A DNA stretch of 64,000 bases from a virus (taxonomy: Duplodnaviria > Caudoviricetes), in IMG/VR virus record IMGVR_UViG_2684623176_000004, positions 1 to 64,000 of that record. One strand, written 5' to 3'. Of this stretch, positions 3,446 through 63,244 are shown one piece after another (positions within the stretch are counted from its first letter, which is position 1; the number at the start of each line of letters is the position of its first letter). The position numbers and the translations under genes were made by a program. Under the pieces are notes generated by a model that saw only the letters and a program-made list of their open reading frames with translations, was not told the DNA's origin and made no database searches.

Positions 3446-3492
3446 ACATTGCCTCCGCTTATTTTATTTTCACTCTAAATAAAAGACCGATT

Positions 3493-3666
3493 TTATTCAG
3501 TTTTTGAGTTAGATTGTAATTTAAAATTCAATAATCCAAATAACAACACGAAGACAAAGCTTACCGACAATTGAGCAATAGAATATCCTTTCGCTATATA
3601 ATAGCCAATCAAAATCCCTTCAATGACACCTAAAAGATAACTCAAACCTTTAGCTAATTTGTTCAA
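3493..3666 (-). CDS. 57-aa membrane protein
   Basis: AAGGAGG RBS with TTG start, two hydrophobic segments; not in the ORF track. Confidence 0.6.
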   Translation of the reverse strand: MNKLAKGLSYLLGVIEGILIGYYIAKGYSIAQLSVSFVFVLLFGLLNFKLQSNSKTE

Positions 3667-3695
3667 TAAATCGCCTCCTTCATAATTTTATATTT

Positions 3696-3860
3696 TCACT
3701 TCACTTTAATTGACTTAAAAGACAGGTGCACTCGTATCCAATAAAGTGCATCGCTTGCTTCATGAAAATCACCTTTAAAGAAATTCTTCACTACACTTTT
3801 TAATAAGAAAAAAATATGTCTCCAGTCGTCATGCTTAAAACTCATAATCCTTTTTATCAT
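3696..3860 (-). CDS. Hypothetical protein
   Basis: GGAGG RBS; ATGA coupling to the upstream gene. Confidence 0.5.
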   Translation of the reverse strand: MIKRIMSFKHDDWRHIFFLLKSVVKNFFKGDFHEASDALYWIRVHLSFKSIKVK

Positions 3861-4027
3861 TGAAATAATCCTCCCCATATCACTCCTGCCGCAATGGCAA
3901 CAATAAAAACTGAAATAAATTTTATTACACCAATATACACTGCAAATTTAATATCCCCGTGGGAATCCATTCTTGCCAACAACACAAGCCCGAATGCAAC
4001 GAACAAAATCCAAGCTGTTACAATCAT
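3857..4027 (-). CDS. 56-aa membrane protein (YotH-like)
   Basis: MIVTAWILFVAFG...IAAGVIWGGLFQ; not in the ORF track. Confidence 0.6.
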   Translation of the reverse strand: MIVTAWILFVAFGLVLLARMDSHGDIKFAVYIGVIKFISVFIVAIAAGVIWGGLFQ

Positions 4028-4576
4028 CTACTTAGAACCCCTTTCGACTGTATATCCACCGGCAATGTCATTTAAGATCGTACTACTTGAAGAAAGCTTG
4101 TTGCTCTCACTATCTTTATTTTTAGTGTAATTAATGAAATCATCGAACTGGATCAAATACACCCCGTAAGCTGTGTTATTCAATTTATCAATTGTTTCGT
4201 CACTTGGTTTCAAAAACCAGCTATCAGTACCTTGTCCATATACTTCAAAAATTTGAACAATTTCGTCCTTATGCTCAAAGTAAGCCAGCTTATTTTCAAG
4301 TTCACATTCCTCATCAACTGGATTTCCTACATGATTTGTCGCATATTCCATCATTGAAGTAAGCATGTAGCCTAATTCAACGTCAGAGAAGCTTAGCTGT
4401 GGTTTAGGTGTTCCATAATAAATATCTGCTTCATTTAGTGATCCTCTTTGGTTCACTTCTTTAATGATCTCTTCGATAGCTGTGTAGCCTTCATGAATGA
4501 TGAATTCCCTACGTTCCTCATCTCTTCGTTTATAATTTTCTAATATATCATTAACATTAAATTCTGTTTTCGCCAT
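4028..4576 (-). CDS. Hypothetical phage protein
   Basis: Start MAKTEF follows an AAGGAGAG RBS. Confidence 0.65.
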   Translation of the reverse strand: MAKTEFNVNDILENYKRRDEERREFIIHEGYTAIEEIIKEVNQRGSLNEADIYYGTPKPQLSFSDVELGYMLTSMMEYATNHVGNPVDEECELENKLAYFEHKDEIVQIFEVYGQGTDSWFLKPSDETIDKLNNTAYGVYLIQFDDFINYTKNKDSESNKLSSSSTILNDIAGGYTVERGSK

Positions 4577-4994
4577 TAAAACTCTCCTTTGATTATCTGT
4601 TTGCAAATATTAGTATATTCCTGAATGCTATTAATGGTCGTGATGATGCAACCCCTTACCTCTTCTGGTTCTTTAAAATCCATCTCACATTTAAGACAGT
4701 ATTCATCAATCTCAATCATTGCAAGAAATTGATCATTGCTTGGTAAATTTTCAAAATCAATTTCTTTAACCTTGGGATACCTTTTCCCTTAATCCATTCA
4801 ATAAAGGAATAATCAACATTGTTTTTTGCTGCTGCGATTTTTAAAAACTCATGAATATCAGAAGAGTTCTTAATATTGAAATAAATGTGGAGACTTTCCT
4901 TCATGAGATCAAATAATCGCAATAGAGCTTTATCAATGCTACTGTCTGGTTTAGTCTTGAAGTCTATATCAAACCAGGACATTACGCTCTCCAT
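4576..4994 (-). pseudogene. Frameshifted hypothetical phage gene (~139 aa if intact)
   Basis: At ~4765 the -1 frame continues EIDFENLPSNDQFLAMIEIDEYCLK...IKGEF* and ends in a TAATG overlap with the next gene. Confidence 0.6.
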
Positions 4995-5018
4995 TCAATC
5001 CCTCCTTGTACAAATCGA

Positions 5019-5240
5019 TCATTCAGTTTCCCCATTTCTCTTTTTAACTGATAATCTAAGTGTCTTTGTGTCGTATCCTCGCTGTTTCAAATCCTGTATA
5101 AAATTATTAAATGCCTCTGTCTTTAGAAAATCATGCAGCTCCCAACCGTCTTGCTTTCTCGGGTAATAAATCCTCCAATCGTTATCCTTTTTAGACCAAC
5201 AAGCTCCTAAAGTGGTTACGTAATTAAATCCCCTGCTCAA
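5019..5240 (-). CDS. Hypothetical protein
   Basis: ORF with AAGGAG RBS. Confidence 0.55.
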   Translation of the reverse strand: MSRGFNYVTTLGACWSKKDNDWRIYYPRKQDGWELHDFLKTEAFNNFIQDLKQRGYDTKTLRLSVKKRNGETE

Positions 5241-5276
5241 TTTTCTTTCTCCTTTCTAAATGAAATCAACATTTTA

Positions 5277-5468
5277 TCAATCCTCTTCGACTTCTCCATC
5301 TAATTCTTGTTTTAATTTGTAAGCAGATTCAGCAATCCCTTGAAACTCCTTTTCAAGAAGATTTGCTCTCTTGGCTCTTTCAATAAGCCATTCATATGAC
5401 ACCCTATCTAATTCAACCATTGTTTCAGATGCGTAAAATGCCTTTTCTTCAATTGTCATGGCTATCAA
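5277..5468 (-). CDS. Hypothetical protein
   Basis: ORF with RBS; bracketed by two palindromic junction motifs. Confidence 0.55.
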   Translation of the reverse strand: MIAMTIEEKAFYASETMVELDRVSYEWLIERAKRANLLEKEFQGIAESAYKLKQELDGEVEED

Positions 5469-5506
5469 CCCTTCCTGTATAAAATTAGAATTTTATGTTC
5501 TCTATC

Positions 5507-5728
5507 TTAGTCAGTTTTAAATAACCTTCCTTGGATTAAATAGACCCAGTCTAAATGAATATGCCCAACGACTTCTTCCTTTTCATTGACTAACTGAGTA
5601 CCGTTTGATTTTTCAATTGTCAGTTTTGCCGTCTCTGCATCTAATTTGGAATAGTATGAATAAGCATTAGGTTCTTCATCATGATCTTTATACACGACTG
5701 TCCACACATCATCTGATTTTTTCTTCAC
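5507..5728 (-). CDS. Hypothetical protein
   Basis: GAGGTG RBS with GTG start. Confidence 0.55.
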   Translation of the reverse strand: MKKKSDDVWTVVYKDHDEEPNAYSYYSKLDAETAKLTIEKSNGTQLVNEKEEVVGHIHLDWVYLIQGRLFKTD

Positions 5729-7294: not shown

Positions 7295-7336
7295 AGCTCA
7301 CTGCTCCTTCCTATAAAATACAGATTTCATATTAAA

Positions 7337-11758: not shown

Positions 11759-11967
11759 CTTTTTCCTCCTTATTGTTTTAGATAAAAGTCTTCTTTTATA
11801 GAGATGTACATTCCATCAACATCCCTGTTACAACGCCTTATTTCAAAACATTTTCATGAAACAACCGCTTTGTTGGGCATAATTGTTAAGTTTTTTGAGT
11901 ATTTTAAGTTGTACCCTGGCTAAGACCCTCCGCTGGACAAACATCATGATCTAAGCCAGGGCTTGTA

Positions 11968-19595: not shown

Positions 19596-19631
19596 TACGT
19601 CTTCCCCCCTTATCCCTTTAAAATCATCCTT

Positions 19632-19985
19632 TTAATGTAATGAATAAATTCCAGGTTCGCCGATGTCGCCCCCTAATGAATTAAGTGCTTTAAATTCTAA
19701 TTTAACTGCCAAGTCTCCATCTGTATTAAATTTAATTTTATCTACGTTCACCTTGACCACTTTTATTTCTCCCTCATAGCTTGTCAATTTCATTTTCAAT
19801 GGGTCTGTATGTGTTCCGTCTAAACCAAACACTTTAAAAGCTAATGAATCCTTACCAGTGTTTATTATGATTTTGTCCTCATCCTCAACAGCTTCAATGT
19901 TCTGGCAGTGAAGGACAATTTTCGTTTCCTTCGGTAAATAATTATTAAATTTTTCTTTATAAACAGAGACTTCTTTTAAAATCAT
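19632..19985 (-). CDS. Hypothetical protein
   Basis: ORF with RBS; bracketed by two perfect junction palindromes. Confidence 0.6.
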   Translation of the reverse strand: MILKEVSVYKEKFNNYLPKETKIVLHCQNIEAVEDEDKIIINTGKDSLAFKVFGLDGTHTDPLKMKLTSYEGEIKVVKVNVDKIKFNTDGDLAVKLEFKALNSLGGDIGEPGIYSLH

Positions 19986-20034
19986 ATCTGACTCTCCTTT
20001 TGCAAAATTGGTTTAAAATAAAACTTTTAACCGA

Positions 20035-21606: not shown

Positions 21607-21639
21607 TTCAGTTGCTCCTTTCACGTTAAAAATTGAATT

Positions 21640-22113
21640 TTAACCTAATCTCTCCAAGATAATTTTAAGATAATCTTTGAAGTCGATAGCTAAAGCTTCC
21701 TCACCGTTTACACGTTTCTCATCTCTTACACCAAAAAACCATCTATCACCTACCCACTGGCTTGCAGTTATATTATTTCTCCCGAACACATCATGGCCTT
21801 TGAAAGGATTTGCCTCTTCTATTTTCTCTAACATAGACCTTATGTCTGTGAAATACTTAGAACGTTTTTTAAATGCATAGAAGCCAGATTTTGTGGGGTT
21901 TTTCACCACTTCATCTTTAAAGAGGTCATATGCTTCTGTTCCTGCACGAACCCCGAAATACTCAGAATGATAAAACGAAAAACCATCCTTGATTCCGTAT
22001 GTTGCTTCGAATTCATCAAAGAATTTGTTAATATCTTCTCTTCGTTTCTTCTCAGTTTTATACCAATCGCTTTCTTGCTTAATCTCGTATATTGGTGCAT
22101 CTAATGTTTCCAT
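21640..22113 (-). CDS. Hypothetical protein
   Basis: ORF with AAGGAG RBS. Confidence 0.65.
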   Translation of the reverse strand: METLDAPIYEIKQESDWYKTEKKRREDINKFFDEFEATYGIKDGFSFYHSEYFGVRAGTEAYDLFKDEVVKNPTKSGFYAFKKRSKYFTDIRSMLEKIEEANPFKGHDVFGRNNITASQWVGDRWFFGVRDEKRVNGEEALAIDFKDYLKIILERLG

Positions 22114-22620: not shown

Positions 22621-22666
22621 TTAGCATCTCCCCACTCTCGATAAAAGGAATATTTTATTTTCATTC

Positions 22667-22878: not shown

Positions 22879-22930
22879 AATATACTCGCATTCTCCCAAA
22901 CAATCAATAACTATTTTATTTTTATTCTTA
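22879..22930 (-). promoter_or_regulatory. SigA-type promoter with SPbeta repeated element
   Basis: GAATAAAAATAAAATA followed by TTGATT-N17-TATATT. Confidence 0.65.
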
Positions 22931-23110
22931 AAAAGTTTCTTTTAACTTTCTTAGCTGTACTGTTGCAGCCAAAATATCCGAATCACACCTTTTCCATATA
23001 TGGTTATCCTCTGGCCTTAAATTGTTCTCTAAATAAACCCAAAGCTTATCTAATATCTCCTCAATCTCATCAACGTCATTATTAATAATATCCTTGGCAA
23101 TATCCCTAAT
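22928..23110 (-). CDS. 60-aa hypothetical protein, ATT start
   Basis: Open frame filling the gap between neighbours; GAGGT RBS; no ATG/GTG start and no TTG near the RBS. Confidence 0.5.
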   Translation of the reverse strand: MRDIAKDIINNDVDEIEEILDKLWVYLENNLRPEDNHIWKRCDSDILAATVQLRKLKETF

Positions 23111-23619: not shown

Positions 23620-23656
23620 CTCTTATATTTTATTTTTACTCTTTAAAAGACAAATT

Positions 23657-24442
23657 TTATACAGTTTGGAATACTTGCTGCTCATGCTCCTTAATCCATT
23701 CTAATGAACGTCCATAATATTGATCAGGATTGTCTTTATTCCATTCAAAACAAATGTAATTCCTATTTGTGTTTATACAGGCAATCGCTGCCGTTCCAGC
23801 TCCACTGCAATTATCTAAAACAGTGTCGCCTTCATTTGAATATGTTTTAATAATTTTTTCGTAAAGCTCTACGGGTTTTTGAGTTGGGTGAAACTTTCTG
23901 GGATCATCGTTATTCATTACAGGTATTCTCCAAACACTTGTTGGGTATCTGTCAGTTTGTCCGCCACCTGATATTCCTGATTTTGTTTCTCCGTAGTTTG
24001 TTCCATCACTCGTGTGCTTTGTATACGTATTTGCAGACTTATGCCCAGTTGTTTTCTGTGGATTATAAGTCGGTAATTTTTTATAAAAAACTAAGATTTC
24101 CTCATGTGATCTCAATGGCATTTTTTTAGCATTCAAAAAACCAGTGCTTTTATTTTTCTCCCATATTATATCGTATCTGTACATCTTAGGGTTGCTCGCA
24201 ATAAGCAATGAAGAAAAAGGTTTTACAGCTGTTAAAACAATTGCGCCATTGTCTTTAATAACCCTTTTGTATTGTTTCCATAGCTCATCCAAAGGCAAAA
24301 TTTCATCCCACTTATTTTGATTTGTTACACCATATGGTAGATCGCATATAATCAAATCAATTGTTTTATCTGGAACACGATTCATTCCTTTATTGTGTTC
24401 ATTACTTAAACAATTTTCATTGAAAAGCTTGTTCAACTCCAA
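23657..24442 (-). CDS. Orphan N4-C/N6-A DNA methyltransferase (beta class)
   Basis: DLPY, HPTQKP and LDNCSGAGT motifs. Confidence 0.88.
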   Translation of the reverse strand: MELNKLFNENCLSNEHNKGMNRVPDKTIDLIICDLPYGVTNQNKWDEILPLDELWKQYKRVIKDNGAIVLTAVKPFSSLLIASNPKMYRYDIIWEKNKSTGFLNAKKMPLRSHEEILVFYKKLPTYNPQKTTGHKSANTYTKHTSDGTNYGETKSGISGGGQTDRYPTSVWRIPVMNNDDPRKFHPTQKPVELYEKIIKTYSNEGDTVLDNCSGAGTAAIACINTNRNYICFEWNKDNPDQYYGRSLEWIKEHEQQVFQTV

Positions 24443-24485
24443 TAATCCAACTCCTTTTTCTCTTTAAATTGATCTTTTATTTAGA

Positions 24486-25037: not shown

Positions 25038-25074
25038 TACGGTCTCCCCTTTCTCTATAAAAGAGATATTTTAA

Positions 25075-28340: not shown

Positions 28341-29042
28341 CTAACTAATAATCGAGATTGTCCCATTTTGCTTGCCAAAATTAATTGCGTCACGCTCGGT
28401 TGCTACGAGCAAGTCCACTTTATTTCCAACAATTGCGCCTCCAGTATCAATTGCAATTGCCTTAAAAGTTTTCCCACCAATGCTTACTTCAACAATTGAA
28501 TTCAAAGGAATAATACTTGGATCAGTTGCTATAACACGATACCCTTTGTAATAGATTGATTGAGTGACATCAACACCTGTTCTGGTTGTCCCTGTACATC
28601 CTTCTTGGCAGTGTGCAATATAAGCACTTAGCTTAACTTGGATGGTTTTCTTTGTTGCCGGCAGTTTATTTTCTTTCTTATTTATTTTATTTTCACTCTT
28701 AAAAACTGTATGCTTTGCCGTCTCACCTCCTCTCATGTGCCTTTTCTTACTTTGCTTAGGTTTAATGAGTTTTGCTGAGATAATCTTCTCTGTATGCCTT
28801 TTTAATTGTTGTTCTTTGTTCGTTTGAGCTTTTTTAAATAGCCGTAAGACAATATTCTCACTTGATGGGATCCTAATCTGTCTAGGCTTCTTATAAAATG
28901 ATTCTTTTATTGAGTCTTCATTTCCCTCTGTTTTATGTAAATGCTGCTCATAACTTATATAAGAAAAAGTGGTTAAGGGTATTAAAATCATCATACCATA
29001 AACGGACTTGAAAATGTGTGATTTTATTTTATTTTTATTCAT
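28341..29042 (-). CDS. yorM: Membrane-anchored 3D-domain cell wall protein (YorM-like)
   Basis: SAY..C.GC.G.T, IATDP..IPL and DTGGAI.GN..D motifs. Confidence 0.82.
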   Translation of the reverse strand: MNKNKIKSHIFKSVYGMMILIPLTTFSYISYEQHLHKTEGNEDSIKESFYKKPRQIRIPSSENIVLRLFKKAQTNKEQQLKRHTEKIISAKLIKPKQSKKRHMRGGETAKHTVFKSENKINKKENKLPATKKTIQVKLSAYIAHCQEGCTGTTRTGVDVTQSIYYKGYRVIATDPSIIPLNSIVEVSIGGKTFKAIAIDTGGAIVGNKVDLLVATERDAINFGKQNGTISIIS

Positions 29043-35899: not shown

Positions 35900-37414
35900 T
35901 TATCCTGCTTTAATATTCAATTTTTCAACTGTAATTAATTCGTTATCGATATTTGTTGTGAAACAATCCTTGATCCGCATATTCCCCATATTTATATGGG
36001 AGAAGACTTTTACTTTGTCGTACTCATTCCCCCTGTTTTTAAACACATGTGTAACAAAATTTGGCTCTGGGTAAAATCCTGCTTTTAAGATTGGCTCAAT
36101 TGCATCCTTCTCTTTTTTACTTAAAGGAAGAATAATCATTGCACCATCAGTCTTATCGGCAATAGCTTTACTTCCTCTCAGGTAAGATGCGTCTATTACT
36201 TGTCCTTTTTGCCATGCCTCTTTCCAATCACCATTTAACTGAGTAGCACTCATCATATAAACATCGTATTTGTTACATAAGCCCTTTAACTTATCAGACA
36301 TAAGCAAAAGGATTTGATCCTCTCTTAAGTTGACCCCGCTTTTTTTACTCATCTCCGAAAAAATTGTCACTGATGAGTGAATATAATCAAAGTAAATGTA
36401 CTCAACATTATTTTTAATTACATTCTTTTCAATCGTTCTCTCGATCTCTTGGATATTAAAATCAGGAAGATGCTCGAACCAAATTTTAGACTGCTGAAGT
36501 ACTTTAGCAGCTTTGCGCACAAGCTGTTTTTCTTGCTCATTAATAGTATTCCTAAGTATTTTTTTCTCTTCTACGCCACTAATATAGGCAAGTGCCAAGC
36601 TTTGCAATTCCTCTGCCATCATTTCCGTTGAGATGACCGTGGAACTTTTATTCCAAGGATTTTTCACCCATTCCTTCTTTTTAAGGTCGTACAACTCAGT
36701 TGCACTTAATCGACAAGCATCAGCAACCATATTCCTTGTTTTACCTCCGCCTGTAATACTTGAACGAATGTAAAACTTTTTCTTACGAGACCCACGGAAA
36801 ATTGACGTAAGCATTTCGCTATTTAATGGGACTCCAATATCTGGTGACTCCTCAAAAGAATCTAATAACTCATCAATGCCTTCTCCACCTTGAATTCCCA
36901 CACTTTCAGATGAGGTTCGAAACTTCTCTTTTACATCTACAATCTTCATTTCATAAGCTGCTAGAATTTCGTCAATCGATTTCTTATCAAACTGTTCCTG
37001 CATTTTTTCTTGTTCTTTTGGATCAATTATAGTTTCATCATAAATCTCTTTGATATCGAAACCTAAACCACTCATTTCTCTGAGCAAACTAAACTTTTTT
37101 AGTCTTTTGTAATGGTAATCAAAGTTTTCGACTACAGCCAGCTCTTGAATTCTTTCGATGTATTCAAGGCCATTGTTATCATGAAAAATTTTATATTGGA
37201 TGTCGTAATCTTTTAGATATCCATCTATCTCAACCTCATTCAATACTTCCGTCCCTTGATGGAATAAGTTACTCATAGCAAAAAACAGTATTGAGTGAAA
37301 TCTTGAAGGAAAATCTTCCGAAGTAATCCTATACTTGTTGCTTTCAGACAAGATTGTGGGATCCTTGAGTACGCTCCCCAACACTTGTATAATTGCTTTT
37401 TTGTCTTGTAGCAA
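35900..37414 (-). CDS. yorI: DnaB-like replicative helicase (YorI-like)
   Basis: TGGGKT, STEM, FDYIH, ATQLN and KNR motifs. Confidence 0.9.
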   Translation of the reverse strand: MLQDKKAIIQVLGSVLKDPTILSESNKYRITSEDFPSRFHSILFFAMSNLFHQGTEVLNEVEIDGYLKDYDIQYKIFHDNNGLEYIERIQELAVVENFDYHYKRLKKFSLLREMSGLGFDIKEIYDETIIDPKEQEKMQEQFDKKSIDEILAAYEMKIVDVKEKFRTSSESVGIQGGEGIDELLDSFEESPDIGVPLNSEMLTSIFRGSRKKKFYIRSSITGGGKTRNMVADACRLSATELYDLKKKEWVKNPWNKSSTVISTEMMAEELQSLALAYISGVEEKKILRNTINEQEKQLVRKAAKVLQQSKIWFEHLPDFNIQEIERTIEKNVIKNNVEYIYFDYIHSSVTIFSEMSKKSGVNLREDQILLLMSDKLKGLCNKYDVYMMSATQLNGDWKEAWQKGQVIDASYLRGSKAIADKTDGAMIILPLSKKEKDAIEPILKAGFYPEPNFVTHVFKNRGNEYDKVKVFSHINMGNMRIKDCFTTNIDNELITVEKLNIKAG

Positions 37415-41408: not shown

Positions 41409-41446
41409 ATATCCATCTCCCATTCTTGTTAAAACTACAATTTTAT

Positions 41447-44010: not shown

Positions 44011-44176
44011 TTAATAACCACTCCTTTTATTTTTGTTTTATTCTTAAATCACATAGGTAACTCACACTGTTATCACCCCCTTAAATAAAAAATTACTTTT
44101 ATTCAGAAATCAATACGATTACTCAACTCCTTAAGGTAAAATATGAGTATCTCTCTTTGAAAGGATTGAGCTATTT

Positions 44177-44353: not shown

Positions 44354-44384
44354 GGTATTAACCCTTCTCTTTAAATTATCGTTT

Positions 44385-44798
44385 TTATTTAGATTCTATA
44401 AGCCCAGGATCTTCGTAAATGTTGCCGATGACTTCAATAGTTGTATATTCCACCCATCCAACGGCTGTTACGTCATAATCAGAGGAAAGCCCTGATACAT
44501 CAACTTGAAATGCCCCACCTGAATACTTGACTTCACATATATTGAATTCTTCCTCATCGTCTTCACTCGTGATGCGAACAATATCCCCCTCATAAATCTC
44601 CCGGCCGTTCTTGTCCTTTAGTCCGGTGTATTGCAAATAAATTAGATGGTGCAACGTTTTAAAATTAGGTTCGTCTTCTGTAATGTCTGTAGCAACAATG
44701 CCGCTTCCACCAAACTCAAAAACAATGTCATCTTCTTCGCCTAAATAAAGCATTCTGTCTTTGACATCGTCCCATGCCCGAAACTTGATTTCTCTCAT
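44385..44798 (-). CDS. YopX-family protein
   Basis: MREIKFRAWD...QYTGLKDKNGREIYEGDI...EVIGNIYE. Confidence 0.92.
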   Translation of the reverse strand: MREIKFRAWDDVKDRMLYLGEEDDIVFEFGGSGIVATDITEDEPNFKTLHHLIYLQYTGLKDKNGREIYEGDIVRITSEDDEEEFNICEVKYSGGAFQVDVSGLSSDYDVTAVGWVEYTTIEVIGNIYEDPGLIESK

Positions 44799-45028: not shown

Positions 45029-45358
45029 TTATAAAATCTCTGTTTTATCAAATTTCTTTCTTAGAAATTCATATTTCTTGAGTGTACGTTCATTCTGATC
45101 TTCTTCCTTTAACTCTTCCATTGCCTTACGGATTAACGGTCTCCAAACGATCAAGTACTTTAGAATAAAAGAACATGGTATTCCAATGCTTACAACAAAC
45201 ATTCCAATTCTTCGTGTTATTATCCTCTGATTGTCTATGGCAGTTAAACCACCAAATAGAAAATATACGAACAAGTTCATACCTACTAACGCTAAAGCTC
45301 CAAGAAGAAGTTCTCTTCTTAATATCCGTGCATCTCTCAATAAATTCAGAAACATCAC
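45029..45358 (-). CDS. Membrane protein
   Basis: Two TM segments. Confidence 0.6.
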
Positions 45359-47203: not shown

Positions 47204-47392
47204 TCTCTCCGTTACATAATTCCTTAGTGACTCGCCATTACACACCAAATGAAAATTTAGTACATGGACCAATTAGATAATTTATCGTTAAAATAACTAT
47301 TTTAATTTAACTTTAATGTGTATCATCTTGAGAAAATCCCCTTTAATTGGTAAGCTGACACCAGATCATACTTATACAAAGCAGGTGATGTC

Positions 47393-49727: not shown

Positions 49728-50130
49728 CTGCTTAATATATTCAGGATCACTAAGTTTTTTGAAATTGACTATCGGTTCTCACCCTTTCTTTAAAACAGTC
49801 TTTTTATCCAGTCGCTCTCTGCTGATTACTCATCACTTGTGGCTTCGCTTTAGCGCAATTTGGGATTGTTTATTATCTTATTAAAGCAGTTGTCAGTAAC
49901 TTCATTCTCGGGAGCAGATACTCACCCAGTTCTGTACGTGAATCCCAACTCACTTCTTTAATACTGGCAATCATCCCTTTTTCATCAATGGAATACTGAA
50001 TCGCAATTTTATCAGCCCCACATTCATACCTTTGTCTAATTTTCATCGGTACCCCTGCCTATCTTCGAAAAGTTATGTATTATTTAATTATCCCTTAGTC
50101 ATTTCTTTACTTCTCTTTAAAACTTCAATT

Positions 50131-50394
50131 TTATTTTGATTTAATCTCAACAATTAGACTGTCAGGATAGTTCTTCAAATCAAGTGCGTTTACATGACAG
50201 TGACCTACATATCCTTCTTTATCAACGTAATTATAATAAAACTTTTCCCCATTATTAATGATAACTTCACCCTGATGTGTATACTCCATCTCTGATCCCT
50301 TGTACCATGTTACTTTAACTTTTGTGCCAGGTATGATTTTATTTAAATCAAATATTGTTATTTCTTTTAGCAAAATCATTTCCTCCATTTCCAT
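50131..50394 (-). CDS. Hypothetical protein
   Basis: ORF bracketed by two perfect junction palindromes. Confidence 0.6.
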   Translation of the reverse strand: MEMEEMILLKEITIFDLNKIIPGTKVKVTWYKGSEMEYTHQGEVIINNGEKFYYNYVDKEGYVGHCHVNALDLKNYPDSLIVEIKSK

Positions 50395-50420
50395 TTTCCA
50401 CTCTCTATAAAATTTTACTT

Positions 50421-51218
50421 TTATTGAAACTTGTGTTTATTTTTCAATAGCTCCTCTTTGATTTCCGCGTAGTCTTTCCCCAATTTCACCAAAACTGAGA
50501 TAGTTTTTTCAGCTTGAACCACTTTTTTAAGATCCTCAGTTGTCATTGCATCTCTAAGTGAATCTTTATCATCTAAATCATATACATTCATTAGTTCTTT
50601 TTTGTTTTTATCAAAACAAACTTTATAAACAAGTTGAGTGAAGTTTGTATACGCATGAGCATCCTTCATGTTTCCTTCATAAAATTCCTTAATTGCATCG
50701 GTAAGCTGTTTTCGTTCTGTCCTCGCAATTTCTCTTTTTGCTGCCCAAATAGCAATTTGCTTTGGAGTGGCTTCCTCTACATTTAACAAATAGTGTCTAA
50801 CTGATTTTCCAACTTTGGATTCAGTAAGTAACATTCCTAATCTAAGTAATCCTCTTCGATTAACAATTTGCAAACTTCTGACTTTCGAGCTTATAATTTT
50901 GCGAGGTTCATCATGAACCTGACAAAATTCTTTCAAACTCTTACCTTTTAAAACTCTAATTTCAGCATAATCATTAAATTCATCTCTATTTCTTTTAATG
51001 ACGGTCTTGATCGTATCAACAGGAACCATATAATACTCCGCGGCCATCTCAACTGTAATTTCTGTAGAGTTCCCAAGTAGAGGTACGACCTTTATTCGAT
51101 CCAAAATCTCGTCCCGGTACATGTGCTCCTCTCGGATAGTTCTGTGCTCGAATACGCCCATTTCGTTATTTTCGTTAATAGTTGCTTCAATTTGTTCATT
51201 TTTGTTTTCTTTTTTCAT
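50421..51218 (-). CDS. Antirepressor-like DNA-binding protein
   Basis: TVEMAAEYY.V..DTI...RNRDEF and LRLGMLL.ES.V...VR.YLL motifs. Confidence 0.65.
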   Translation of the reverse strand: MKKENKNEQIEATINENNEMGVFEHRTIREEHMYRDEILDRIKVVPLLGNSTEITVEMAAEYYMVPVDTIKTVIKRNRDEFNDYAEIRVLKGKSLKEFCQVHDEPRKIISSKVRSLQIVNRRGLLRLGMLLTESKVGKSVRHYLLNVEEATPKQIAIWAAKREIARTERKQLTDAIKEFYEGNMKDAHAYTNFTQLVYKVCFDKNKKELMNVYDLDDKDSLRDAMTTEDLKKVVQAEKTISVLVKLGKDYAEIKEELLKNKHKFQ

Positions 51219-51268
51219 CTAATTCACTCTCCACTTATTTTTAATTTAGTTTAAAATGCATCTTTTAA

Positions 51269-52459: not shown

Positions 52460-52491
52460 GTTATTCCCCCTTATCTTAATCTCTATAAAAC

Positions 52492-52716
52492 TTACATTTT
52501 ATTTTTATTCTGAAAATAATCATGCTGATTTACAACATCTCGAAGTATGTATTGTATTTCCTCTAAATTGTCTTTAACAAAATCTAAGTCTCCAATTGCC
52601 ATTCTGATTTCATTATTCTCTATGCTGCGCAAAGACCTTTCACATGATGCTAAGAGCTTTGCATATTTCCTTAAAACCATAGTTCTTATTTGATTGTTAG
52701 TTGGTTCATTAATCAA
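52492..52716 (-). CDS. Hypothetical protein
   Basis: First gene after a promoter. Confidence 0.55.
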   Translation of the reverse strand: MINEPTNNQIRTMVLRKYAKLLASCERSLRSIENNEIRMAIGDLDFVKDNLEEIQYILRDVVNQHDYFQNKNKM

Positions 52717-56480: not shown

Positions 56481-57539
56481 TCACTTGTTCAAAAACATTT
56501 TAAGTTTACTCTGTATATACATGTCTGATTTTAAAAAGAATTCTTTATACTGCTCTAAGGTAACATCATCTAAAAAAGACATGTCTTCTTTTTGATCAAC
56601 CAAAACCCCTGGATCTTGAGAATAATCCCTTTCATTGACCAAATAATGGTCATTTAAAGTATTGATATTGCTGTGACCAGAGAACGCTGCCACTTTTTTA
56701 ATATCACCATTAACGCTGTAAGAAAAGTTTGTTGCAGTATTGCGTAAACTATGCGGAGTTATCTTTCTTTCTTTGGGAATACCCATAACTCTACATACGC
56801 GATTCCACATATCCTGTATTGAATCAACTGTTAACTTATGAAATAACAGTTCATGCTCCCCATACTCTTGCTTCAACATCAGCAACTCTTCATAAAAAGC
56901 CGTGGAAATTCCAACTGGCCTAGCCTTTTTTTGCTTAGTTTTTTTAAAGTTGACGAGATAACATTGGTGCTTTTCTGAATAAGTAATATCATCCCACCCA
57001 ACTCTAAGCACCTCTGACTTACGCCCTCCAGTACGTGCACTAAACAAAATAAACATCTTTTTCATTAATCTGTTCTGACGCTCAGTAACATACGCTGCCT
57101 CAGCAAATTCATCAGCTTCAGATATTCCTTCAAAAGACCCTGCTGGGTTCTTTTCTGTTGGAAGAGGTCTAAAATTAAATACAGATGCGTCACACTCATG
57201 TTCAGACTCAAGATACTTAATCATACTTTTCAGTGCGGCAATCTTATTGTTAATTGTTGAATTGGAGTTACTTTTATTTTTAGCCAAATGGGTTCGATAA
57301 TCATACAGGTCACTCTTCTTGATCGCCAGGTCACTCTCAGTTAAGTATTCAATATCCTTGGCAGCATAGTGGTTGAAAAACTCTCTTACATGCCTTTCAT
57401 ACGTGGCTCTAGTATTAGACTTTTCAATTTCTCCAGTTTCTCGATCCCTGTTTCTTAAATCTAATTCATCAAACCACCTATTTATGTTGTTGAATATTGA
57501 ATAATCCCTTAGTGTTGACGCTTTCTTTTGAGCTTCCAT
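56481..57539 (-). CDS. yopP: Tyrosine recombinase (YopP/SroD-like), catalytic residues intact
   Basis: TGGRKSE, KTK, HSLR, GHS and DHY give the R-K-H-R-H-Y set. Confidence 0.85.
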   Translation of the reverse strand: MEAQKKASTLRDYSIFNNINRWFDELDLRNRDRETGEIEKSNTRATYERHVREFFNHYAAKDIEYLTESDLAIKKSDLYDYRTHLAKNKSNSNSTINNKIAALKSMIKYLESEHECDASVFNFRPLPTEKNPAGSFEGISEADEFAEAAYVTERQNRLMKKMFILFSARTGGRKSEVLRVGWDDITYSEKHQCYLVNFKKTKQKKARPVGISTAFYEELLMLKQEYGEHELLFHKLTVDSIQDMWNRVCRVMGIPKERKITPHSLRNTATNFSYSVNGDIKKVAAFSGHSNINTLNDHYLVNERDYSQDPGVLVDQKEDMSFLDDVTLEQYKEFFLKSDMYIQSKLKMFLNK

Positions 57540-57548
57540 AATGACACC

Positions 57549-57713
57549 TCATATCATTTTTTTCATTAAGTATTGATCAAATTCTTTCCACGCAACAATC
57601 CATTCATTTTCACCTTGAATATTACTAAGCAGCATTATATTGGCGTTACAGATTTCCATTTGCTTTAACATGTCGTATTCTTTAAGAGCGTTAATTAAGA
57701 TGTCTGTATTCAT
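57549..57713 (-). CDS. 54-aa protein of the sro operon
   Basis: AGGTG RBS; MNTDILINALKEY... Confidence 0.6.
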   Translation of the reverse strand: MNTDILINALKEYDMLKQMEICNANIMLLSNIQGENEWIVAWKEFDQYLMKKMI

Positions 57714-57751
57714 TTTATCACACCTAATTTATTTTTATCCTATAATAAAAT

Positions 57752-57982
57752 TCAGTTTAGGACATTTACCCTTTCGTCCTTACAGACGTTTATAATTGGC
57801 ATCCCCGTCAATTCCTCATAAAGTTCCTCTTCGAATCCAACCCATTCATCACTTGTCGCTTCTCTTCGTAAGAACTCATTATAAGCAACTGCTATCTCAG
57901 GCTGCTCTAGAAACTTTAAAACGATCATATGCTTTTTCCAAACTTTAGCCTTGTTTTCTTCTGTATAATATTTATTATTCAT
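57752..57982 (-). CDS. phi3T_93/SroB-like lysis-lysogeny protein
   Basis: MNNKYYTEENKAKVWKKHMIVLKFL...; position downstream of aimX. Confidence 0.65.
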   Translation of the reverse strand: MNNKYYTEENKAKVWKKHMIVLKFLEQPEIAVAYNEFLRREATSDEWVGFEEELYEELTGMPIINVCKDERVNVLN

Positions 57983-57996
57983 TTTATTTTTACTCC

Positions 57997-58209
57997 TCAA
58001 ATACATTTTATAGAATTTTTTTGTTCTTTAATGAGGTTGTATTCTTTATGATTTTTTCTCATTGTAGTTACATTATTAGGTGTAAACACATCTGGATCCT
58101 CTAGGTGGAGATTGACTCGTGTGAAGTTCTTTAGTTGTTTTATGTATTGATATTGTCTTAATGATGTAATCTTCAACTCTTCCTTTTGAGTGGCACTGGT
58201 TGTTTCCAT
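57997..58209 (-). CDS. First gene of the sro operon (YopM/SroA position)
   Basis: GGGAG RBS; follows a promoter. Confidence 0.55.
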   Translation of the reverse strand: METTSATQKEELKITSLRQYQYIKQLKNFTRVNLHLEDPDVFTPNNVTTMRKNHKEYNLIKEQKNSIKCI

Positions 58210-58245
58210 TGTTTCATCTCCCAACAACGTTCATCTTGTAACTTC

Positions 58246-58296
58246 ATTATATATGTTGCTACAATAATATGCAATAATTTATTTTATTTTTATTCA
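58246..58296 (-). promoter_or_regulatory. SigA-type promoter of the sro operon with SPbeta repeated element
   Basis: GAATAAAAATAAAATA followed by TTGCAT-N17-TATAAT. Confidence 0.72.
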
Positions 58297-58358
58297 CGAC
58301 AAATAACACATCCTCTATGTATGTGTTAAAATGTCTGCTGATTTGTCTTTAATCCTCA

Positions 58359-58514
58359 TTAGGATACCTTTGCTTTATATTTTGATCTAATCATTTCTGC
58401 TTCATTTTCAAGATGATTATCTTCCTGGGAAATTTCTAAATTAATATCTCCCATTTCCATGTACCCTTTGGCCATTTCCTCATAAGAAAGTGCTTGCCCG
58501 AAATGCTTTTTCAT
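58359..58514 (-). CDS. aimX: AimX (51 aa)
   Basis: MKKHFGQALSYEEMAKGYMEMGDINLEISQEDNHLENEAEMIRSKYKAKVS, similar to phi3T AimX; not in the ORF track. Confidence 0.88.
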   Translation of the reverse strand: MKKHFGQALSYEEMAKGYMEMGDINLEISQEDNHLENEAEMIRSKYKAKVS

Positions 58515-58576
58515 TTTAATTCCCCCATGTTCTTGTTTTTTATATTATGAATTTCTGGAACATTCTCTTAAAATTA

Positions 58577-58609
58577 GAAAAGACGCCTGATCCAGTGGAT
58601 CAAACGTCT
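58577..58609 (-). terminator. Terminator between aimP and aimX
   Basis: agacg..tgatcc-agt-ggatca..cgtct hairpin with U-tract on the minus strand. Confidence 0.7.
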
Positions 58610-58641
58610 AACCATTGATTATGTAGTATTCTGTTGTATTA

Positions 58642-58773
58642 TTAAGCTCCCCGAATTGCACTTGCTACAGAGATCTCATCAGAAGCTGATGCCGTATTAA
58701 CTGAATGTTGACCTGCAATGAATGAAATTGCTAATGCTGCTAAAATGGCTGTACCGAAAATAATTTTCTTCAT
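58642..58773 (-). CDS. aimP: Arbitrium propeptide AimP (43 aa), mature peptide SAIRGA
   Basis: MKKIIFGTAILAALAISFIAGQHSVNTASASDEISVASAIRGA; AAGGAGGTG RBS. Confidence 0.95.
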   Translation of the reverse strand: MKKIIFGTAILAALAISFIAGQHSVNTASASDEISVASAIRGA

Positions 58774-58802
58774 TAAATTCACCTCCTTTCAAGTGCTAAA
58801 TT

Positions 58803-59942
58803 CTAAATTAAATTTAACAGCTCCGGATCACAGCCTAATTTTTCGAGTTCTATTATTGTTAATTGGATAAAATATTTATCATCTGATTTTTTGAAATATG
58901 TTATTGATTTATAAAAATCAGATTTTTGTTTTGATATCAAACCTTTATAATAAAAATAAAATCCTAATTCGTTTTCATCTTGATCCCTATTTGATAAGCT
59001 TTCCAATAATTCGTTGGCCTTGTCGAGATTATTATTTTTTATGTAATAAAAAGCCCTAAGCTGCTGATATTTGATATCGTCTGATTCATAGTTAACCCAT
59101 GGATTTTCCTTGTTCCATACATTAGCCAGGAAGCAAAGAGCACCATTTAGCATTTCTTTATGGGTATCATTATGAACATACTTCTTTGCCTCAATATACG
59201 CCAGCATAGCTTCTTCATAGTTTTCGAAAATTAGAGTGTTTCCTATTGTCAGATGCGCAAAAAAACATATTCGTTTCACATTGGACTGCATTATTGCAAA
59301 ATTTGAATGTTTCCTCGCTTCGATTAAATTGTTTTCATTTAAGCTTATATTCGCTTGTAACATTGACACTCTACTTTTGTACGAATCTTTTATAAATCCT
59401 TCTGGCAAGCTTCTAAAATCTAAAAGTGTTAAAGTGCTTTTCATCAATCCAAACTCACCAATATTCAAGTATTTGTACATTAGCATTGCATCTGAGAAAA
59501 ATGACATTTCTGGAGCTTTACATCTCCCACACTCTCTTATTGCTTCTGGTATTGAGATTTGGTTTTTATATAGCTTTCTATGTATGTTGTAGATGTTTCC
59601 CCATTCTTGACTTGTTGTGTTTTTTGAGTTACTTAAATTTAATATAATCTTGTCAGTTAACGAATCCCATTGATTTATATCAGAGTATTCAACAGATTGT
59701 CTAGCACATTTTTTGTTGGGATCCAATGTTAAGAAGTAATCACTTAGAAGCTGCTCTTCATTATCAGGAAACAAGTTTTTAACAATCTTAATTAAACCGC
59801 CTAAGTTGTCCATTTCTTTCTCTGGGGTGTTAATGAACTTGTAAAAACCATTAACCTTTTCGTATCCTGCCATTTTTGACAGTTTCGTTGCGAGTTGGTT
59901 GTCTTTTTCACATTCATTCTTAATCATCTGCTTAAGATTCAT
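58803..59942 (-). CDS. aimR: Arbitrium receptor AimR (phi3T-type)
   Basis: MIKNECEKDNQLA..GYEKVNGFYKF N-terminus and TPR repeats; adjacent to aimP. Confidence 0.95.
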   Translation of the reverse strand: MNLKQMIKNECEKDNQLATKLSKMAGYEKVNGFYKFINTPEKEMDNLGGLIKIVKNLFPDNEEQLLSDYFLTLDPNKKCARQSVEYSDINQWDSLTDKIILNLSNSKNTTSQEWGNIYNIHRKLYKNQISIPEAIRECGRCKAPEMSFFSDAMLMYKYLNIGEFGLMKSTLTLLDFRSLPEGFIKDSYKSRVSMLQANISLNENNLIEARKHSNFAIMQSNVKRICFFAHLTIGNTLIFENYEEAMLAYIEAKKYVHNDTHKEMLNGALCFLANVWNKENPWVNYESDDIKYQQLRAFYYIKNNNLDKANELLESLSNRDQDENELGFYFYYKGLISKQKSDFYKSITYFKKSDDKYFIQLTIIELEKLGCDPELLNLI

Positions 59943-59983
59943 TGGTTACTCCACCCCTTCCCAACTAATGTTCCCTTGTTTAT

Positions 59984-60034
59984 AATATACATTAGAGTTG
60001 TCAGAATTACAAGTATTTATTTTATTTTTATTCT
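59984..60034 (-). promoter_or_regulatory. aimR promoter with SPbeta repeated element
   Basis: GAATAAAAATAAAATA followed by TTGTAA-N17-TATATT. Confidence 0.7.
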
Positions 60035-60126
60035 AATTATTTTTTGAAGAATCCTTATCTGTTTAAAATTCGTATTTTATTTAAAACCTTCTCACAATAG
60101 CTTTACTGCAAGAAGGCATCTTACGA

Positions 60127-61586: not shown

Positions 61587-61802
61587 TCACCTAGTAATAA
61601 CTTCAATTTGTCTTATGGTAGAAGTGGCTTTAAACTCTGTATGCAGCTCGTTTGCGATCACTAAAGCTTCTGACATTGTAGTGAACTTAGAAGCGCCATG
61701 AAGCCCCTTAGATGTCTTATAACCACTTCCATCTAGTTTAAATGACTTGAAGTAATCATCATTTTCAAATTGAATTACAAAAAAGTTATCGATAACCGGC
61801 AT
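61587..61802 (-). CDS. Hypothetical protein (YopF-like)
   Basis: GAGGAG RBS. Confidence 0.55.
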   Translation of the reverse strand: MPVIDNFFVIQFENDDYFKSFKLDGSGYKTSKGLHGASKFTTMSEALVIANELHTEFKATSTIRQIEVITR

Positions 61803-61804
61803 AG

Positions 61805-62056
61805 CTAACTCCTCTTCAGCAGACCAGCAATTTTTATGGCCAGTGGCAGTAATCCAATCAGTATGTAAAACACCATGATATTTATTTTATTCTTAAAAAA
61901 CAGCTCAATCATATTCTGCTCCATGCCTGGTGAAAATGAATCAATCAGTTCCTGCTTAAAATCTTCATCATAAACCTGATCAACAAATAATGCCTTAAAT
62001 CCCGTTAGAAAGCCAACACCAAGCCAGAGTATTAAGAAATATGCTATTCCAATCAA
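61805..62056 (-). CDS. Membrane protein (YopE-like)
   Basis: Two TM segments; AGGAGG RBS. Confidence 0.6.
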   Translation of the reverse strand: MIGIAYFLILWLGVGFLTGFKALFVDQVYDEDFKQELIDSFSPGMEQNMIELFFKNKINIMVFYILIGLLPLAIKIAGLLKRS

Positions 62057-62126
62057 ATTAAAACCCTCCTTATATACATCGTCTGGTATTATAGTAGTGT
62101 TAAATACTTTGTGTAGGTGAAGTTTA

Positions 62127-62309
62127 ATGGAAGAGAAAGATTTTGAGACTAATGGCTACGATGTAACGGTTGTGTATGATTATAAGGAGTATCCCGATGT
62201 TAAATATGGTCGCTGTGACAACTGTGATTGCGCTTTATTCAAGAGCTCAGTGAAAAGTGGTGTGTTTTTACGTGAGTGTCGTAGATGTGGTATGAAGAAG
62301 AGCATTTAA
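62127..62309 (+). CDS. Small Zn-ribbon protein
   Basis: CDNC...CRRC; AGGTG RBS; terminator hairpin at 62299-62322. Confidence 0.6.
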   Translation: MEEKDFETNGYDVTVVYDYKEYPDVKYGRCDNCDCALFKSSVKSGVFLRECRRCGMKKSI

Positions 62310-62319
62310 ATGCTCTTTT

Positions 62320-62544
62320 TTATTTCACTGGATCCATGTAGCTTACATATACTTCAATTCCATCTTCAGTTTTATATTCTGCAATCCTGTCTGGATCAGC
62401 TTCAATCTTCTCTATTAGTCGTTTCGCATCCTTGTTCCTCCTTGCAGTATTGGAAACTACAATCCAAGACCAATAATTCCATTCAGAGATGCAAGACTTA
62501 ATCTTTTCTGGTATCTTATGACCTATTGTGTAAACCTTGATCAT
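62320..62544 (-). CDS. Hypothetical protein
   Basis: AGGAGGAG RBS. Confidence 0.55.
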   Translation of the reverse strand: MIKVYTIGHKIPEKIKSCISEWNYWSWIVVSNTARRNKDAKRLIEKIEADPDRIAEYKTEDGIEVYVSYMDPVK

Positions 62545-62650
62545 TTATTCGTCTCCTCCTATAAAATAATGCTTGTTCTTGATCCCTTTGCCTCTGCAAA
62601 AAAAGTCTGCAACGTGATAAGGTTAACCAAATTACCTTAGGAGTGTTTGC

Positions 62651-62881
62651 ATGCTAAAAGCTACAAAAATTCTCATTTCATTTATGGCGTTGTTACTAGC
62701 CGTGTATACTCTGTTTAATCAAAGTGGATTCCTGTTGATTTCTCTTCAGGTATTAGTTGCAGTTCTTTTTATCATAGTCGGGCTGGAATTACTTTCAAAG
62801 AAACAAAAGAGCTATGGATATATCTTCTTTGGAACATCCGCCTTTATACTTGCCGTGAACATTATTAAATTCATGATTTAA
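62651..62881 (+). CDS. Small three-TM membrane protein
   Basis: AGGAG RBS; hydrophobic. Confidence 0.6.
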   Translation: MLKATKILISFMALLLAVYTLFNQSGFLLISLQVLVAVLFIIVGLELLSKKQKSYGYIFFGTSAFILAVNIIKFMI

Positions 62882-62971
62882 ACCTCAGATGATAGTGCCT
62901 TTATGTATCTCAATCTCTTGTTGAATACATAGTCTTCCAGCCCATCTCAATTTATAATTTTTCTTATCTCA

Positions 62972-63199
62972 TTATTTAATCCAATGAGCTGGTGGAACGC
63001 TTAGCACCTGATATTGTTCATCTAAGTAAGCATGTTTCCTCTCCCAATCACTTTTCTTCCATGCTTCTTGATTTGAGTATGATGTATCTTTTGGTTTTGG
63101 ATAGTCTCCATTTACCCAACCATTTTCAATATGATTTAGTTTCGCTTCGCTGCCTTCATCATTGTATTTATACCAAACTGTAATCATTTTGACGGCCAT
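62972..63199 (-). CDS. Hypothetical protein
   Basis: AGGAGAGG RBS. Confidence 0.55.
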   Translation of the reverse strand: MAVKMITVWYKYNDEGSEAKLNHIENGWVNGDYPKPKDTSYSNQEAWKKSDWERKHAYLDEQYQVLSVPPAHWIK

Positions 63200-63244
63200 A
63201 AGACATCCTCTCCTTTTAAAATCCTAGTTTTCTTTAGTTTTTCG

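Follow-up and report, generated by a model that had tools for sequence, protein, structure and literature searches.

A spacer-specific TAAAA-N6-TTTTA dyad marks gene-unit borders in SPbeta-like Bacillus phages and may serve as a joint for exchange of adjoining DNA

Results

A 64,000-nucleotide stretch of viral DNA (the window; positions 1 to 64,000 of IMG/VR record IMGVR_UViG_2684623176_000004), which is the first half of a single 126,873-bp SPbeta-like Bacillus phage contig, is punctuated at the borders of its gene units by a palindrome of two 5-bp arms around a 6-bp centre, TAAAA-N6-TTTTA. The dyad is specific in sequence and in spacing, it recurs in the related phages that we compared, and homology between these phages breaks at the edges of the sites. 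We propose, at somewhat better than even odds (about 0.55), that a protein reads the sites and that they are slot-addressed joints for the exchange of adjoining DNA between related phages, with the crossover falling inside the 16-bp core. Our main comparison set consisted of eight related genomes, the window's own among them, from which 271 perfect sites were pooled, and the gene context of these sites was taken from a crude gene caller. A wider set comprised 13 IMG/VR relatives picked by DNA polymerase identity (49-92%). We found no description of the TAAAA-N6-TTTTA motif in the literature searched on SPbeta-like phages; the SPBc2 record annotates two other 'palindrome' sequences (77856-77871 and 82394-82411) and leaves the TAAAA-N6-TTTTA sites unannotated.

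Abundance and spacer specificity of the palindrome

We counted 22 perfect copies of TAAAA-N6-TTTTA in the window. For 100 dinucleotide shuffles the expectation was 0.90 and the maximum 3, so that no shuffle reached 22. Changing the spacer to N5 or N7 gave no copies, and the remaining spacers from N0 to N14 gave 0-4. The original prediction of this motif, made from the letters of the window, had proposed this comparison with shuffled sequence and with N5 and N7 spacers, and the outcome favours it; the 19 perfect copies that it reported reflect a real feature, although the number itself was too low. The whole genome holds 30 copies at N6 and none at N5 or N7, and 25 of the 30 lie in the early arm, the part up to ~80 kb in which genes run on the minus strand, those beyond it running on the plus strand.

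The same preference was observed in the other phages. Each of the eight genomes carries 30-37 copies at N6 and 0-5 at other spacers (SPBc2: 34 at N6, one at N5 and three at N7), and phi3T and SPR, with 30 and 35 copies, contain two and zero copies, respectively, of the backwards control pattern. An unbiased scan of all 5-mer arms with spacers of 2-10 nt ranked the combination of TAAAA and N6 first in the window's own genome (30 vs 2.3 expected), in SPBc2 (34 vs 2.3) and in the relative G002 (31 vs 4.7). Among the 13 relatives of the wider set, 12 contain 5-38 copies of W-TAAAA-N6-TTTTA-W compared with 0-2 of the control, and the remaining one, G009, has a single copy.

Copies with one mismatch do not form an enriched class, as there are 21 at N6 compared with 17-35 at N4, N5, N7 and N8. 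Four of the 21 (5261, 7314, 24464 and 44372) are intergenic and match perfect sites of other phages in their spacer, and judging by these shared spacers we regard them as decayed orthologues of the perfect sites. The earlier figure of about six one-mismatch copies is roughly matched by these four orthologous degenerate sites, though not by any enrichment of the class. Two blocks of the window are free of sites, the nrd block (11783 to 19619) and the arbitrium/repressor operon (52486 to 60064), in keeping with what had been noticed before; the replication core, which was also thought to be clean, has copies at 28894 and 36072, both inside open reading frames (ORFs).

A 28-bp dyad at the borders of gene units

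Read in gene sense, the bases outside the core are mirrored (profile from 170 and 168 unique contexts): T at -5 (118) corresponds to A at +22 (153), C or T at -4 (80 and 59) to G or A at +21 (88 and 64), and T at -3 (113) to A at +20 (122). Because T, Y, T at -5 to -3 mirrors A, R, A at +20 to +22, with W on both sides of the core, we describe the full site as a 28-bp dyad, TYTnnW-TAAAA-N6-TTTTA-WnnARA, which has two 11-bp arms and a free 6-bp centre (11-6-11). This is the architecture of a Xer/dif-type core, with two ~11-bp arms around a 6-8-bp centre, so that the tyrosine-recombinase core geometry seen by the original prediction is both borne out and extended.

The chief alternative is that the dyad is primarily bound by a dimeric phage protein (the ParB/DndB-like YopQ or a helix-turn-helix (HTH) protein) as an operator or roadblock, for example with the role of a silencer or insulator, and that it enters general or phage recombination, such as Sak4-type annealing, as passive micro-homology; we consider this possible but rather doubtful. 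An 11-6-11 arrangement with a free 6-bp centre is a Xer-type hallmark and argues against it. In its favour, a dyad with strict spacing establishes that a protein reads the site, not that the protein is catalytic, and a spacing of 5-N6-5 is the geometry of ordinary HTH dimers as well.

By our gene caller, 214 of the 271 sites lie between co-directional genes and 26 are intragenic. The left arm often provides the stop codon of the upstream gene, and within the window this had correctly been noticed for the sites at 3480, 19619, 21627, 23644, 50118 and 50408; the seventh stop on that list, 44385, goes with the degenerate site at 44372. The units described earlier as bracketed by a pair of sites are likewise each flanked by a perfect or an orthologous degenerate site. 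On the sense strand, a Shine-Dalgarno sequence follows most copies at a distance of 5-10 nt, and the distance from site to start codon is 18-40 nt if a ribosome-binding site (RBS) alone follows and >120 nt if a promoter intervenes. In SPBc2, the aimR and yorE sites are located downstream of the preceding terminator and upstream of the promoter, and the yosX site comes after a promoter that bears SPBRE, the operator of the repressor MrpR, and directly ahead of the RBS. The common placement rule is the border between gene units, without a fixed distance to any expression signal. The lack of a fixed distance to promoter, RBS or start (mostly 18-40 nt, but >120 nt with a promoter in between) is a point against an operator.

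Placement ahead of Shine-Dalgarno sequences, at 5-10 nt in most copies, would also suit an RNA element, that is a processing or stability hairpin or a translation signal, and the 28-mers fold slightly better than shuffles (mean minimum free energy -2.18 vs -0.79 kcal/mol). However, the hairpin of the 5-bp arms has a mean of +0.58 kcal/mol, its loop length is fixed and its stem invariant, the arms never co-vary, some sites lie upstream of promoters or after terminators and hence outside the downstream mRNA, and no site has an Rfam match. In the relative G009, moreover, 42 of 59 sites would hold an A.C or G.U pair. An RNA role is thus very improbable and close to refuted.

Nor is the site at all likely to be a promoter, whether used by host RNA polymerase together with a phage factor or by YonO, the polymerase of the phage itself. 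Such a role would explain why the motif recurs ahead of many genes in gene orientation with an asymmetric downstream WnnARA, and published passages on YonO give no sequence for its promoter. Against it, the outer bases are mirror-image and not directional; 25 of the 30 sites of the window's own genome lie in the early-gene arm, whereas transcription of the late operon by YonO is reported in those passages to begin at a single site ahead of yonK; and only one of the seven sites in 19000-26000 overlaps a weak sigma-A-like match, such matches numbering 12 compared with 26.9 in shuffles. None of these seven sites coincides with a terminator-like site.

Slot-specific centres and breaks in homology

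The 271 sites have only 76 distinct centres, and therefore each genomic slot keeps its own centre across phages, while neighbouring sites differ in theirs. We judged the 360-nt flanks of the 39 slots seen in at least three genomes. At the protein level, more than one unrelated type was found upstream at 29 slots, downstream at 23, on both sides at 19 and on neither side at six, and four slots passed the four-gamete test; the corresponding values from nucleotide-level clustering were 30, 26, 23, six and two. In 138 of 184 upstream and 74 of 124 downstream comparisons of unrelated flanks, identity stops no more than 2 nt from the 16-mer. Of 2556 unique ends of BLAST high-scoring segment pairs (HSPs), 342 fall in the 36-nt zone around sites, a zone that makes up ~1% of the genomes, with pile-ups of 99 'begin' ends at offsets -2 to 0 and of 67 'end' ends at offsets 15 to 17. 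Breakpoints were present in 98 of 125 intergenic regions with a site, compared with 193 of 467 motif-less ones, counts whose cases have common ancestry and are not independent. The proposal that breakpoints between related phages would map to the motif is upheld by these data, in which homology breaks coincide with site edges at single-base resolution. Functional blocks lie between consecutive sites, among them the nrd block and the arbitrium/repressor operon, which occurs in two types that are 31-40% identical.

In 169 of the 263 cases with homology on one side of a site and unrelated sequence on the other, the two phages have the same 16-mer; for control intergenic 16-mer windows the figure is 1092 of 13865. 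Retention of the 16-mer at sites is similar for either kept flank (60 of 99 and 109 of 164), and because retention is about equal we conclude that the site belongs to the slot and to neither gene; a site that travels with neither neighbouring gene is unlike what an operator predicts. In vertically inherited pairs, the centre changes at 0.042 per site and the flanks at 0.036-0.059, and the inner arms at about a third of that pace. These pairs give no sign of selection on the centre, which changes as fast as the flanks, and since centres change at the flank rate, identical centres beside unrelated flanks point to replacement of the flanks.

That the same slot has the same centre and that flanks recombine there is consistent with centre-matched strand exchange, and short homology predicts the same pattern. 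Recombination through 16-28 bp of shared sequence would produce islands of identity equally well, and on the operator account the dyad would be the sole shared sequence at variable junctions because selection retains it. A second repeat of this genome, AGAATAAAAATAAAATA, likewise appears as short islands between unrelated flanks, which is another point for that account, and the laboratory hybrids considered below arose through homologous exchange. On the other side, 16 bp is very short for homology-driven exchange.

A changed arm in a distant relative

The relative with a single W-TAAAA-N6-TTTTA-W copy, G009, is an IMG/VR provirus of 152,503 bp, and an unbiased palindrome scan of it returned TGAAA-N6-TTTCA as the top dyad (12 vs 1.1 expected). 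The general form T[AG]AAA-N6-TTT[CT]A occurs there 59 times at N6 and 4-10 times at N4, N5, N7 and N8, in the same junction context. One G-type arm is combined with one A-type arm in 42 of the 59 sites, and A.C mismatches on the sense strand are common. As the G009 arms vary independently and would often mispair in RNA, they point to a protein that reads two half-sites on duplex DNA. Mixed-arm sites are in excess (42 vs ~29 expected for independent arms), which would fit two different subunits on the two arms.

Deep sharing of centres is modest: seven are common to G009 and G002 (~1.9 expected) and three to G009 and the Spbetavirus set (~2.4 expected). The neighbouring slots GAATCC and TATTCA are kept in both relatives (81009 and 81867 in G009, 74021 and 73639 in G002), where the flanks no longer align. 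A scan of viral contigs with the 28-bp pattern returned mostly single copies among the matches listed.

Candidate readers of the sites

Among the products of the window are AimR, MrpR, a DndB/ParB-like YopQ and a tyrosine recombinase of the YopP type, a set that is 76-78% identical to that of phi3T and just 31-40% identical to that of SPbeta. The YopP-like gene (56481..57539, minus strand; Pfam Phage_integrase, E = 2.1e-14) is a candidate reader only. Its product keeps R169, K202, H263, R266, H290 and Y299, predicted from sequence to be the full catalytic set. YopP has been described as a core gene of SPbeta-like phages with a XerC-superfamily domain and no assigned function. A profile built from three family members had XerH as its sole match among PDB sequences, and a single-sequence phmmer search of PDB sequences with YopP gave no match; in a search of genome contigs, the profile hit at least two loci among the matches listed, both of them unrelated. 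The tyrosine recombinases seen in the window are this protein and the inactive-type MrpR only, both inside the arbitrium operon.

The YopP family is encoded in all eight genomes and in all 13 relatives, and because the latter include the arm-changed G009, co-occurrence of YopP and the motif was discarded as a test that does not discriminate. YomM was rejected as the reader, being absent from the window's own genome. Other possible readers are the host CodV/RipX pair, YopQ and an HTH dimer. DndB-domain YopQ-like proteins are encoded in 8/8 genomes, which suits the operator alternative, as does the identity of the arms in lineages whose YopP proteins diverge by ~68%, where a conserved binder fits better than YopP.

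The known master repressor, MrpR, is in any case a poor fit for the operator alternative: the ChAP-seq passages of PMC10516654 describe 10 MrpR peaks, compared with the 34 sites of SPbeta. From the ten promoters under these peaks we derived SPBRE as ATACAAAWAATATGTAT, present in nine of the 10, and in SPbeta-type phages this sequence occurs about 10-12 times, inside promoters. We rejected the identification of the palindrome with SPBRE, as ATACAAAWAATATGTAT is absent from the window's own genome and from phi3T, each of which has 30 palindromes. The motif common to MrpR-bound promoters also rules out that AGAATAAAAATAAAATA is SPBRE.

Sites along the window

Sites are given here without strand. 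The perfect site at 3480..3495 (centre TCGGTC in gene sense, on the minus strand), one arm of which is the stop of ORF 3493-3666, has its 16-mer in 8/8 genomes beside four upstream and three downstream protein types. ORF 5277-5468 is bracketed by a degenerate intergenic site at 5261..5276 (TGAAA arm), the spacer of which is that of a perfect site in Goe12 and Goe13, and by the perfect site at 5480..5495 (TTCTAA), which separates it from ORF 5507-5728, occurs in 8/8 genomes and passes the four-gamete test. Another degenerate intergenic site, at 7314..7329 (TTTCA arm), shares its spacer with a perfect site of phi3T, SPR and L2. The borders of the nrd block are the perfect sites at 11783..11798 (GAAGAC), with HSP ends at 11796-11805, and at 19619..19634 (GGATGA); the arm of the latter is the stop of ORF 19632-19985, and it was found in seven genomes with four upstream and three downstream protein types. 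In the ribonucleotide reductase region, Rfam reports a group I intron at 16359-16527 on the minus strand (52 bits vs a gathering score of 50).

The interval 19000-26000, for which megablast matched only Bacillus SPbeta-like phages (24 records, query coverage <=24%), continues with perfect sites at 20014..20029 (GTTTTA) and 21627..21642 (TTCAAT, its arm being the stop of ORF 21640-22113), both found in 8/8 genomes and both passing the protein-level four-gamete test. They are followed by perfect sites at 22642..22657 (TATTCC; 8/8 genomes, five downstream protein types), at 22929..22944 (GAAACT), directly after which come a AGAATAAAAATAAAATA element and a promoter-like site, and at 23644..23659 (TTTGTC), which provides the stop of the methylase ORF 23657-24442 and in 8/8 genomes has three unrelated upstream types and one downstream type. 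Between the methylase and ORF 24486-25037 lies the degenerate site at 24464..24479 (TTAAA arm), with a spacer that is a perfect-site spacer in six other genomes. The perfect site at 25058..25073 (TATCTC) is present in the window's own genome, phi3T and SPR, and there all three upstream types are unrelated, as are all three downstream types.

The AGAATAAAAATAAAATA repeat is found on the minus strand and is often followed by a TTGAC-type -35 sequence (positions include 9052, 9141, 18135, 22914, 23628, 38985, 39947, 40385, 48015, 52787, 58282 and 60020), and of the 27 copies of its core TTTTATTTTTA in the genome, 21 fall in the window. Because the window's own genome and phi3T are without SPBRE, AGAATAAAAATAAAATA may be an UP-like promoter element or a phi3T-type MrpR operator.

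Two perfect copies in the replication core are intragenic. The copy at 28894..28909, inside a yorM-like ORF (28341-29042), is putative as a functional site and has a counterpart at the matching place inside yorM of SPBc2 (111029), and the copy at 36072..36087, inside a helicase ORF (35900-37414), is broken at the same place in SPR and is probably fortuitous. Beyond the core, the perfect site at 41430..41445 (TTGTAG) lies just after the stop of ORF 41447-43189. A plus-strand 58-aa ORF (44177-44353) is bracketed by the perfect site at 44086..44101 (GTAATT), found in five genomes, and the degenerate site at 44372..44387 (one arm ATTTA), which overlaps the stop of ORF 44385-44798 and agrees in its spacer with a perfect site of SPBc2 and Goe11-13. 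The perfect copy at 45032..45047, called intragenic by the crude caller, is at the 3' end of ORF 45029-45358 and hence at a gene junction, and that at 47289..47304 lies between the plus-strand ORFs 46391-47203 and 47393-47767, with HSP ends at 47276-47288.

In four raw-read RNA runs with the same species label, the interval 44000-53000 was covered at 46408-47912 only, with none of the sites covered. The reads have 88-95% likeness and fall mainly at 47311-47912, with the first mate on the minus strand. As they match the plus-strand gene region 46408-47912, a relative of this region was transcribed in those cultures.

The perfect site at 49791..49806 (AGACTG) occurs in 8/8 genomes, with five upstream and three downstream protein types. 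The arm of the next one, at 50118..50133 (TTGAAG), is the stop of ORF 50131-50394; in phi3T, the end of the yoqG-like gene that in the window lies upstream of this site runs straight into the AGACTG site, which belongs to the next slot, the single one-sided case of a site-to-site indel. An arm of the site at 50408..50423 (GTAAAA) is the stop of ORF 50421-51218, and this slot has four upstream and six downstream protein types in seven genomes. The site at 51252..51267 (GATGCA) was found in 8/8 genomes, and its centre also in the distant relatives G009 and G002. Finally, the arbitrium/repressor module has its downstream border at 52486..52501 (TGTAAG), a site found in six genomes where the window's own upstream side is unrelated to the other five, and its upstream border at 60064..60079 (TACGAA), ahead of the aimR promoter region.

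Discussion

We propose that a dimeric protein would read the 28-bp dyad on double-stranded DNA, and that the dyad would mark the exact border of a gene unit, downstream of the stop codon or terminator that closes one unit and upstream of the promoter or RBS that opens the following one. Each slot has its own 6-bp centre, common to related phages, and a crossover inside the 16-bp core would let related SPbeta-like phages swap the sequences to its left and right. With a centre of its own at every slot, the exchange would stay in register, so that modules could be swapped without scrambling gene order. We infer that the crossover takes place in the site and that it is catalysed by a tyrosine recombinase (YopP or host Xer) in preference to short-homology recombination. 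Seen in this way, the system might be a natural form of recombinase-mediated cassette exchange in a virus, with YopP or host Xer as the candidate enzyme on 30-60 dif-like sites per genome and the centres as addresses, but we regard this fuller picture as speculative and on present evidence unlikely.

Several observations weigh against a crossover in the sites or against YopP as its catalyst. Motif-less junctions also carry breakpoints, in the 193 of 467 intergenic regions given above, and in the early region of the window's own genome alone the difference (9 of 14 vs 26 of 60) is not significant. Among the eight genomes, we found no site-to-site insertion or deletion with both outer flanks conserved and no inversion bounded by sites. 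The replacement of the 's' fragment between phi3T and phi3Ts (101429-102694 in phi3T vs 101434-102159 in phi3Ts) runs from the stop of a polymerase gene to the next RBS and has no palindrome at either border. Laboratory hybrids of phi3Ts and SPbeta crossed over in tracts identical between the parents, from 40 bp to 18 kb in length, and one 40-bp crossover interval is without any site; as the parents do not differ in these tracts, the position of the exchange within them cannot be read from the hybrids. According to passages of the Dragos preprint, 15 of 16 hybrid junctions lie in homologous regions and one 'non-homologous' junction is placed after yosA. As to YopP, the SPbeta-type protein (Goe12, L035:8868-9941) has HSFK at the HxxR motif, with K in place of the second catalytic R. 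In addition, the YopP of the window's own genome and phi3T is ~32% identical to that of SPbeta, yet the arms are unchanged, whereas MrpR at 31% identity did change its operator.

Compared with known systems, the sites share features with several and coincide with none. Integron attC sites are imperfect palindromes of 57-141 bp that are read as a folded single strand. As in integrons, recombinase-type sites punctuate accessory genes here and content varies unit by unit. Unlike attC, the present site is 28 bp long and does not fold as a single strand (arm hairpin +0.58 kcal/mol); unlike in integrons, no attI/Pc platform was noted (no search aimed at IntI-specific features was made), single-cassette indels number zero, and the units have their own RBS and often their own promoter. 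The integron-like excision and insertion of single cassettes favoured by the original prediction is not supported by these comparisons, given zero site-to-site indels, zero inversions and differing centres at neighbouring sites. The likeness to Tn916 fails as well, as Tn916-type targets consist of a T-tract, a 6-bp coupling sequence and an A-tract, the polarity opposite to that of the motif, and TTTTA-N6-TAAAA occurs zero times in the window. Modular theory and its lambdoid linkers concern short conserved sequences between interchangeable modules, proposed as crossover points. Unlike such linkers, the present sites are numerous, have one dyad consensus that points to one reader, and are addressed by their centres.

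The dif modules of Acinetobacter offer a closer parallel. Passages of PMC6449649 and PMC13141974 describe multiple pdif sites that flank modules, with rearrangements between spacer-matched sites. As with these modules, which use host XerC/XerD, many dif-like sites of 11-6-11 form in accessory DNA flank modules in varied combinations. Here, however, 30-60 sites are spread over a phage replicon of 127 kb, and where dif modules have different arms for XerC and XerD, the phage sites form a near-perfect TAAAA dyad. Centres differ from slot to slot, and exchange seems to take place at matching slots of different genomes and not within a replicon; inversions and site-to-site deletions were not found in the genomes compared, and the recombinase may be phage-encoded (YopP). 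The core sites of Xer recombinases (Bsdif, difH of XerH and difSL of XerS), as given in parts of PMC5357621, have the same 11-bp arms and 6-bp centre, and in difH (AGTTATGAAAA) and difSL (TTTCCGAAAA) the inner arm likewise ends in an A-tract beside the centre. Unlike dif, which is a single chromosomal site for dimer resolution, dozens of predicted sites per genome lie at gene borders.

Two regulatory elements also bear comparison. The PeSL (promoter-early stem-loop) elements of T4-type phages, in the portions of PMC2839356 that describe them, are short conserved intergenic elements that flank non-essential genes in variable genome regions, at the borders of insertions, deletions and replacements, and they provide the operator alternative with a precedent. 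The present sites occupy similar border positions. PeSLs are working promoters and terminators and are all alike, whereas these are 28-bp protein-type dyads with individual centres, and a sigma-70-type promoter joined to a terminator stem-loop was not found at the seven sites in 19000-26000. SPBRE, the MrpR/YopR operator as presented in sections of PMC10516654, is like the palindrome a repeated intergenic element of the same phages, and its reader has a tyrosine-recombinase fold; it differs in sequence and lies within promoters.

The borders of phage mosaics are an old open question, usually answered by invoking either dedicated linkers or illegitimate joins that arise at random and are then filtered by selection. 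Dozens of same-armed, individually addressed dyads at replacement borders make the linker idea directly testable in SPbeta and phi3T of Bacillus subtilis 168, for which strains and mutants exist. Were a recombinase to act on them, the sites would be a phage counterpart of plasmid dif modules and a natural analogue of heterospecific lox/FRT cassette exchange, and would explain the fast shuffling of anti-defence and accessory genes. Co-infecting or resident phages would then swap anti-defence genes, methylases and even the arbitrium/repressor module slot by slot with gene order kept. Should the sites be no more than operators that serve as micro-homology, they would still constitute an unrecognised genome-wide regulatory element of a much-studied phage.

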